The notes: generated from the sequence alone by a model not told the origin. A stretch of DNA of 64,000 nt from a virus (IMGVR_UViG_3300020190_000008), one strand, 5' to 3'; counted from the stretch's first letter, positions 59,170 through 59,892 are shown. Program-made: numbers and translations.

Positions 59170-59283
59170 TGTCAGGGTGGGATTCGAACCCACAATGAGC
59201 AACCTTATAACTTTTCGCGTCCAAATTGCTCTTGGACCGTGGTGTTTTTCGGACTCGGCACCATGCCTCATTACACTCCTGAC
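59170..59283 (-). ncRNA. tRNA-like RNA with acceptor stem and T arm but no canonical D or anticodon arm
   Basis: GTCAGG...GTGGG-TTCGAAT-CCCAC-CCTGAC; internal AATGAG/CTCATT stem and two hairpins. Confidence 0.6.
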
Positions 59284-59613
59284 AAACAACGACTCTTCAG
59301 CTTTCTACTCCCAGCCCCGAGGAATTGTATATAACTTAGCCCATCTCACCGCTGTGTGGGAACTGAAGTTTACTAATGTCTTTTTCTTATGACAAACATA
59401 AACAATATAAATGATATTAACAATAGTGGTGTCATAATTTTTTTAATTTAAAAAAGGTGGAGATTTGAATCCAACGCATGATCACCCATACGCTTCGTTT
59501 CTTTTGTCTTAGGCACTCCACCATTGTAAGTTCTTCTTTGCTTGCGCCCCCATTCACGGACTTCCGATTTCCCAATGGGTTTTACCGTCCTATCGGAGTC
59601 AGGTAACCACTGT

Positions 59614-59717
59614 TGTCAGGACAGGATTCGAACCTGCACGGAATAAGTGTAATATTTACCTTATTCCAAGGAGTCTTGGGTATCTCTCCCAGCGTCTACC
59701 AATTCCGCCACTTGACT
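59614..59717 (-). tRNA. Atypical Leu-type tRNA or pseudo-tRNA with a 12-nt anticodon loop and very long variable arm
   Basis: D arm GCGGAATTGGTAGACGC; GGGAG-AGATACCCAAGA-CTCCT; GGAATAAG...CTTATTCC; GCAGG-TTCGAAT-CCTGT. Confidence 0.6.
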
Positions 59718-59830
59718 GTTTTTTTGTAGTTTAGTAGTTAAATCAAACTCTCGTTTCACTATCTTGATTTAACAGGTTGATACACTTTACGAGTTTCCCG
59801 TTTCTTACAACCACAATGTTTTTCAATATT

Positions 59831-59892
59831 TCAAAGAACCTTTATTCCTTATTTGTCTTACAAAGATATGTAGAATTTTTTAATCTACCAAA
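59831..59892 (-). promoter_or_regulatory. Host-type promoter plus boxA leading the small-RNA cluster
   Basis: TTTG-N20-TATCTTTG (59892-59861); GTTCTTTGA (59839-59831). Confidence 0.7.

Follow-up and report, generated by a model that had tools for sequence, protein, structure and literature searches.

The 64,000-nucleotide (nt) stretch of virus DNA considered here, referred to below as the window (IMGVR_UViG_3300020190_000008), is part of an IMG/VR virus record of 127,688 bases. Since this record was judged to be 44% complete at that length, it represents a fragment of a jumbo phage genome; its source is an uncultured freshwater jumbo phage and the clade to which it belongs consists of abundant uncultured lake phages. 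Our subject is the minus strand of positions 59170-59892, for which a first-pass annotation had described a promoter and a boxA element followed by six small structured RNAs, numbered here 1 to 6 from the promoter onward. The G+C content of this region is 0.37-0.47, versus 0.19-0.30 in its flanks, and no minus-strand open reading frame (ORF) of 60 amino acids (aa) or more was found across it. As predicted from the comparison with related phages reported below, the block contains three structured RNAs (unit 1, units 3 and 4 taken together as unit 3+4, and unit 5), two non-decoding tRNA-derived RNAs (units 2 and 6) and a gene for a 20-aa micro-protein. At the gathering score, Rfam identified in the window a GOLLD RNA (55958-56369, minus strand), a transfer-messenger RNA (tmRNA; 55190-55580, plus strand) and one tRNA-Arg(TCT), the latter (61968-62041) being the sole tRNA that ARAGORN calls in the window at default settings, and it gave no match within 59170-59892. 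At E ≤ 10 nothing relevant was obtained for 59170-59830 beyond a sub-threshold tRNA match on unit 2, and units 1, 3+4 and 5 had no match among 4,227 Rfam families. These Rfam covariance and ARAGORN checks agree with the earlier statement that the cluster holds no canonical tRNA. A further sub-threshold tRNA-like element lies outside it, at 60902-60974 (26.7 bits), for which ARAGORN at a relaxed threshold proposes the anticodon TCA. Full-text literature searches yielded no description of the motifs of the cluster.

To place the region in context, 99 related loci were fetched from uncultured viral contigs by means of two flanking proteins, a 101-aa protein (64-78% identity) and a DenV-like protein (74-95% identity). 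BLAST of the region against these loci revealed a mosaic, in which the promoter cassette and units 1, 2, 3+4, 5 and 6 match separately and in which both the order of the modules and their neighbours differ from locus to locus. Each of the units thus recurs as a module in related phages, and the folds of all of them covary. The sequences that had been recognized as six units are therefore real, but they form five modules rather than six, since units 3 and 4 travel together. The possibility that the region encodes a single large RNA was rejected because the modules reshuffle independently between phages. ARAGORN detected 355 tRNA/tmRNA genes in 54 of the related loci, and in dozens of related phages the homologues of the units are interspersed among canonical tRNAs and, without exception, share their strand. 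The non-tRNA modules mostly adjoin a tRNA-shaped element: unit 3+4 starts 3-5 nt past a tRNA-like 3′ end in all 14 distinct contexts, while a tRNA or tRNA-like 5′ end occurs at most 16 nt past unit 1 in about 42 of 59 distinct contexts. In six loci (L108, L142, L167, L181, L122 and L145) an element starting with TTGTGTTGTTCCCTTGAGAAAGG takes the place of the tRNA-like gene after unit 1. The related arrays also contain freshwater-1, an orphan small RNA motif (RF02979; L148:1101-1162 and L129:4650-4711, with 85 and 84 bits) that is absent from the window, as well as odd or suppressor-like ARAGORN calls (L060:248-322, L171:2157, L129:6193 and L148:3232), such as TTA “Stop,” CTA “Pyl” and four-base anticodons, e.g., TTAA. 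The 127-kb record has one canonical tRNA, versus 10-30 at the same locus in related phages. Judged from this comparison, the phage has apparently lost the decoding tRNAs of the island and retained its other modules.

The promoter proposed earlier at 59892-59861 was recovered as the sole match in 59170-59892 to the pattern TTTG-N18-21-TAnnTTTG, where it has the form TTTG-N20-TAnnTTTG. This promoter-like cassette (59861-59892, minus strand; TTTG-N20-TATCTTTG), assigned by pattern to the Bacteroidota -33/-7 type, carries an internal GTAGA/TCTAC inverted repeat and is conserved in the related loci, with several copies per locus. The first 49 bases of the cassette match LR745206, a 635-kb record of an uncultured phage, at 94% (blastn). 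A near-copy of the cassette (TTTGGTAGATTAAAAAATT...TACTTTTG) is located at 60293-60324 on the minus strand, ahead of the gene for the 101-aa protein. The boxA-like sequence GTTCTTTGA, also pointed out previously (59839-59831, minus strand), lies 22 nt past the promoter match. The window holds three copies of it, and every one of them directly precedes, in the same sense, an RNA unit: the tmRNA, the GOLLD RNA and this cluster. Three copies were also reached in 9 of 100 shuffled sequences and, therefore, the placement of GTTCTTTGA weighs more than its number. In most relatives this element, conserved as GTTC(T/A)TTGA, precedes unit 1, often behind a G+C-rich hairpin.

Unit 1 (59725-59815, minus strand) is the first of the modules and is predicted to be an RNA of approximately 90 nt with two pseudoknots. 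Its 25-nt core pattern was found in 83 viral contigs, almost always as a single copy per contig, and was absent from 185,579 species-representative prokaryote genomes. The 54 distinct sequences of this unit align gap-free; 44 of the 98 columns are invariant, and all 44 are retained in the window. A model with four helices was tested on this alignment, with slid partner columns as the control. It comprises P1 (columns 4-9 with 89-94), the pseudoknot helix CUCGU/ACGAG (26-30 with 65-69; invariant in the 54 sequences), P2 (37-40 with 56-59) and the 10-bp hairpin P3 (46-55 with 73-82). In this model 91.9% of the cells are paired, whereas sliding the partner column lowers this to 34-52%. Both sides change in 12 of the pairs, seven of which belong to P3, and at the pair 37:59 the 43 sequences with C-G and the 11 with U-A account for the whole alignment. 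The 10-bp stem, of which seven of the ten pairs covary, and the pseudoknot had both been noticed from the single sequence, and the alignment adds two helices to them. An HDV-like fold was rejected for unit 1, whose helices (A B C D C′ B′ D′ A′) follow another order than in such ribozymes; the known self-cleaving ribozymes in general (hammerhead, hepatitis delta virus (HDV)-like, twister, pistol and hatchet) gave no Rfam match at E ≤ 10.

The position of unit 1, which is promoter-proximal and heads the tRNA block, raises the question of whether it acts in cis, perhaps together with unit 5, as a processive-antitermination or RNA-folding leader with boxA (put/EAR-like) or as a riboswitch. Such a role would suit an extremely conserved element that is always promoter-proximal and single-copy, heads long untranslated arrays, and mostly lies 10-15 nt past GTTC(T/A)TTGA, in many relatives with a boxB-like hairpin ahead of it. 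However, the tmRNA and GOLLD units of the same phage carry the boxA-like element without unit 1, and in some relatives unit 1 follows directly after the promoter and lacks a boxA. Downstream of unit 1 in the window come an A-rich stretch and a tRNA-like gene, but neither a terminator nor an ORF and, consequently, unit 1 has no riboswitch expression platform. The absence of such a platform and of any Rfam riboswitch match led us to discard the riboswitch for units 1 and 5; for the latter, its varying position relative to the micro-ORF described below also counted. We therefore consider a cis-acting role of unit 1 improbable, and prefer to regard it as one of the released RNAs of the array, as set out below.

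Units 3 and 4, which always co-occur, form a single structured module of approximately 155 nt (59450-59608, minus strand). The consensus fold of 12 sequences has 36 predicted pairs, ten of which show compensatory changes, and consists of a first hairpin, a CCCAUU/AAUGGG helix that encloses a 3-bp helix, and a further hairpin; within the CCCAUU/AAUGGG helix the pair 33:67 is C-G in five sequences and A-U in five. This helix had been part of the H-type pseudoknot that was proposed for unit 3, and it indeed covaries. The second element of that pseudoknot, GACUCCGAU/AUCGGAAGUC, survives in altered form: it is best read as a loop-loop contact of 6-7 bp that joins the first hairpin to the second. 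Each of the 12 sequences retains it in one of two compensated versions (UCCGAU/AUCGGA and U(U)CCUGG/UCGGGA(A)), with a calculated duplex energy of -7 to -8.5 kcal/mol. Unit 3 as a separate entity did not stand, as it is joined to unit 4. For the latter, the closure by GGUGGAG/CUCCACC was confirmed, this helix closing a domain that contains a covarying 9-bp hairpin, whereas the supposed T-loop-like GGATTCAAATC is not conserved. The unit 4 domain is followed in the window by six U, and 10 of the 12 sequences end in five or six U. An identity of unit 3+4 with RNase P RNA was ruled out because the string GGAAGUCC is not conserved among the relatives.

Unit 5 (59291-59380, minus strand) is represented by 26 distinct sequences and is predicted to be a three-way-junction RNA of approximately 75-90 nt with kissing hairpin loops. 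Its 7-bp closing stem, recognized in the first-pass annotation, occurs in six compensated versions, and its two hairpins are connected by six loop-loop base pairs, three of which covary. Overall, 97.8% of the cells are paired, compared to 35-50% when the partner columns are slid, and changes on both sides are seen in ten pairs. The outer helix alternates between ACGA/UCGU and ACACG/CGUGU. A hammerhead ribozyme could be dismissed for this unit, which has CUAAGUU where a hammerhead needs CUGAUGA.

The sequence between units 4 and 5 (59455-59369) had been considered one of the A-rich spacers between GC-rich islands. The GC-rich islands are real, but this spacer contains a conserved ORF (59373-59435, minus strand) that encodes a predicted membrane micro-protein of 20 aa, MTPLLLISFILFMFVIRKRH, consisting of one hydrophobic helix and a basic tail. 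Across its 16 distinct DNA versions conservative changes are numerous, and the start, the length (20-21 aa), the hydrophobic helix and a terminus resembling R-K-R-R are all retained. Unit 5 is found before or after the micro-ORF depending on the phage, so that in some phages the micro-ORF is located between units 5 and 6, and in most loci unit 5 has after it either unit 6 directly or the micro-ORF and then unit 6; where the micro-ORF precedes, the outer helix of unit 5 overlaps its stop codon. Because of this conserved micro-ORF, the array is not purely non-coding, as had been assumed, even though the rest of that description, a processed array of RNAs like a tRNA operon, fits the occurrence of homologues among same-strand tRNAs and the existence of counterparts in phages T4 and T5. 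A second conserved micro-ORF, of 27 aa (MEVIIACLVPISLIGILLVSYLRYKGK; 58978-59061, minus strand), is located downstream of unit 6 and has 56-81% identity to its equivalents at the same relative position in relatives. On the opposite strand, a 71-aa ORF (59177-59392, plus strand) overlaps units 5 and 6 in antisense. It probably does not code for a protein, since relatives place the micro-ORF between these two units and the changes observed are compensatory changes of the RNA type.

Unit 2 (59613-59717, minus strand) is predicted to be a non-decoding scaffold RNA of the class II tRNA-Leu type. The consensus cloverleaf of 12 sequences has the acceptor, D arm (GGCGGAAUUGGUAGACGC) and T arm of a leucine tRNA, an oversized variable arm in the form of an 8+3-bp hairpin that covaries, and a 5-bp “anticodon” stem that closes a 12-nt loop in the window. 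In the 11 relatives this loop is an almost invariant 13-mer, AUAAUACUCAAAA, of which the last seven bases (CUCAAAA) have the form of the Leu(CAA) anticodon loop. The loop is too large, however, and unit 2 would therefore be unable to decode. The copy in the window is the most diverged of the family, with three loop positions changed, and scores 24.1 bits against the Rfam tRNA model (RF00005), below the 29-bit cut-off that the relatives pass with 30-33 bits. No antisense target for the loop of unit 2 was found in the 127-kb record with up to two mismatches. The scaffold is not confined to this unit: within the 99 loci, at least 52 distinct elements, 62-167 nt in length, combine the same acceptor/D/T frame (GUCAGG...CCUGAC) with middles that are unrelated to one another.

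Unit 6 (59169-59284, minus strand) constitutes a second type of tRNA-shaped RNA, with consensus folds for a long form (15 sequences) and a short form (11 sequences), each with six compensated pairs. In the long form, which is the one present in the window, the 7-bp acceptor (UGUCAGG/CCUGACA) is perfectly paired and the T arm is canonical; GG is retained in the loop of a small D-like hairpin, and the middle is long and structured. Other phages have an 80-nt short form, in which the middle is replaced by a stem of 5-6 bp with the loop YGUURAR (position 33 being a G) and the D region is non-canonical. In both units 2 and 6 a 5-bp T stem closes a GGUUCGAAUCC T loop. That these two units are tRNA-shaped without being normal tRNAs, as stated previously, accords with the results of the tRNA searches: ARAGORN calls neither at default settings, and unit 6 has no match to the Rfam tRNA model at E ≤ 10. 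A 7-nt loop with U33 was found in none of the units, and in neither of its forms does unit 6 appear to possess a usable anticodon loop.

At a relaxed threshold ARAGORN does propose a tRNA-Cys(ACA) for unit 2 and a tRNA-Leu(AAG) for unit 6, assuming introns of 32 and 43 nt, respectively. Together with the Rfam scores of the relatives of unit 2, this might suggest that both are genuine decoding tRNAs whose short introns or expanded loops are either removed or tolerated. Such a reading is scarcely credible. The short form of unit 6 is free of an insert and still has the YGUURAR loop, G at position 33 and the non-canonical D region, the inserts vary in size and sequence over the whole length range of the scaffold family, and we know of no bacterial or phage splicing route for such short inserts.

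The same features bear on the idea that the units are decoys or sponges for host defences directed against tRNAs, such as anticodon nucleases or toxins that modify the acceptor end, in which case units 2 and 6 would soak up the enzyme. Both retain an acceptor, a T arm and an elbow-forming D loop, the invariant loop of the relatives of unit 2 ends in the Leu(CAA) form, and the scaffold family has many members with exchanged middles in the clade. Nevertheless, we do not favour this explanation and regard it as unlikely because units 1, 3+4 and 5 are not tRNA-like and a normal anticodon loop of 7 nt is missing from units 2 and 6. Genes for RtcB, TROVE/Ro or a CCA-adding enzyme, which would point to a tRNA conflict module, were not found either in the 127-kb record, which is 44% complete.

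The loss of canonical tRNAs that relatives have at this locus could also mean that the cluster is a set of functionless pseudogene remnants of a tRNA array. Unit 2 of the window, with its altered loop, its low score compared to its relatives and two mismatches in the acceptor (A1:A72 and A6:C67), is what would be expected in that case. Against this, dozens of homologues of units 1, 3+4, 5 and 6 either have nearly the same sequence or differ by compensated changes, unit 1 retains every invariant column, the acceptor of unit 6 is perfect, and the modules are kept precisely where the tRNAs are lost. We therefore think it very unlikely that the cluster consists of remnants; decay explains at most unit 2 of this one phage. 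Stable RNA genes within a phage tRNA cluster, as we propose here, have precedents in phages T5 and T4.

In the tRNA region of phage T5 (GenBank AY543070), RNA1 and RNA2 are annotated as “tRNA-like stable RNA with unknown functions” and RNAI, RNAIII, RNAIV and RNA2H as “stable RNA with unknown functions.” RNA1 is directly followed by RNAI and RNAIII, and RNA2 by RNAIV; the region also contains small ORFs, one of them with two transmembrane domains, and internal promoters. The likeness to our cluster thus lies in oversized tRNA-shaped RNAs within a phage tRNA cluster that have non-tRNA stable RNAs directly after them, and it extends to RNA1 itself, in which, as in unit 2, a D arm of the tRNA-Leu type (GCCGGAAUUGGUAGACGG) and a T arm surround a middle of approximately 75 nt. 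The non-tRNA RNAs of T5 are, however, other RNAs than units 1, 3+4 and 5, and the host phylum differs as well, since the promoter here is of the Bacteroidota type. In phage T4 (GenBank AF158101) the stable RNAs rnaC (species 1) and rnaD (species 2) are located directly downstream of tRNA-Arg, and rnaC, which ends with a canonical T arm and an acceptor-like 3′ strand, can be likened to unit 6, but nothing in T4 corresponds to the unit 1 leader, nor to units 3+4 and 5 with their pseudoknots, and the sequences are unrelated. Compared with T5 RNA1 and T4 rnaC, units 2 and 6 likewise keep tRNA elements (acceptor, D and T) around a middle that is enlarged and would not decode. A blastn search in distant mode with an 801-nt region against 50,697 phage records gave the 49-nt match in the promoter region as its only result, and no match to T5 or T4. 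The resemblance is one of kind and not of family; the T5 and T4 RNAs are annotated as stable RNAs, and the accumulation of the present units as discrete stable RNAs is a prediction.

In mitochondrial polycistrons, MALAT1 mascRNA, the TMERs of gammaherpesviruses and the engineered “tRNA scaffold,” a tRNA shape recruits the ribonucleases (RNases) P and Z. If our inference is right, the likeness to this tRNA punctuation holds in that tRNA shapes would give defined ends and stability to neighbouring or embedded RNAs, but these examples are eukaryotic, organellar or synthetic, whereas the cluster described here is known from sequence only. A third comparison is offered by GOLLD (RF02032), ROOL and freshwater-1, conserved and covarying orphan RNAs near phage tRNA islands (PMC12286853). 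GOLLD is encoded 3 kb from the cluster in the same window and freshwater-1 occurs within the related arrays; units 1, 3+4 and 5 are far smaller than either GOLLD or ROOL. As a kind, such a locus is an old one, but the RNA families of units 1, 3+4 and 5 are new.

Based on the covariation, the modularity, the rules of strand and neighbourhood, the single promoter-like site with its boxA-like element, and the retention after tRNA loss, we consider it reasonably probable that the cluster is a tRNA-punctuated operon of stable RNAs, i.e., a block of a tRNA island without the ordinary tRNAs in which the other genes have been kept. Host RNA polymerase would start at 59861-59892, and the boxA-like leader would render it resistant to termination, as in rRNA operons, so that neither the many hairpins of these untranslated RNAs nor the hairpin with its U-tract after unit 4 would stop it. 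The host enzymes for tRNA processing would then recognize the acceptor, T arm and elbow of units 2 and 6; RNase P would cut their 5′ ends, and RNase Z or exonucleases would form their 3′ ends. In this way three discrete stable RNAs would be released: unit 1, which would extend from the start of transcription as far as the cleavage by RNase P; unit 3+4, bounded by the cut at the 3′ end of unit 2 and by a terminal hairpin of its own; and unit 5, which would end where RNase P cuts ahead of unit 6. Such a pattern would resemble the tRNA punctuation of mitochondrial transcripts. The compact pseudoknotted folds and the long invariant single strands suggest that each of these RNAs binds a specific protein or ligand during infection.

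Several observations weigh against this interpretation. The phage is uncultured, and the ends of the released RNAs are predicted from sequence comparison. The minimum free energy of the whole region is no better than that of shuffled sequence (z = -0.51); thermodynamics alone is therefore uninformative either way, and the support for the predicted folds is comparative rather than thermodynamic. The boxA assignment is presumptive, being based on a 9-mer, GTTCTTTGA, that resembles the boxA sequences of bacterial rRNA operons. The U-tract after unit 4 could end transcription, in which case a promoter would be required for unit 5, unit 6 and the micro-ORF, and none was found. With its two mismatches only five of the seven acceptor pairs of unit 2 are left in the window, so this copy may be decaying and a poor substrate for RNase P. 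Finally, about a quarter of the unit 1 copies are not followed by a recognizable tRNA shape.

A more far-reaching proposal is that units 1, 3+4 and 5 represent three new classes of trans-acting functional RNA (protein sponges, ligand binders or catalysts), employed by freshwater jumbo phages in the course of infection, and that the tRNA-Leu-shaped genes serve as an “RNA display chassis” with swappable domains, the whole forming a toolkit that was kept after the loss of the decoding tRNAs. The constant tRNA body would then guarantee processing and stability, and functional RNA domains would be exchanged in it like cassettes. We put this forward tentatively, as a possibility that is at present rather doubtful.

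The non-tRNA stable RNAs of the tRNA clusters of T4 and T5 have been annotated for decades without a known function, and GOLLD and ROOL illustrate that the RNAs of such islands can be remarkable. To these the present cluster adds, as predicted here, three compact, strongly covarying pseudoknotted RNAs and two tRNA-shaped scaffolds, with sizes (75-155 nt) that suit direct structural and binding studies. The canonical tRNAs are gone from this locus and the modules remain and, therefore, the role of the latter would be separate from codon supply. If the RNA-toolkit reading is true, these uncultured lake phages would maintain a set of RNAs with a role outside codon supply, for example in host takeover or counter-defence.

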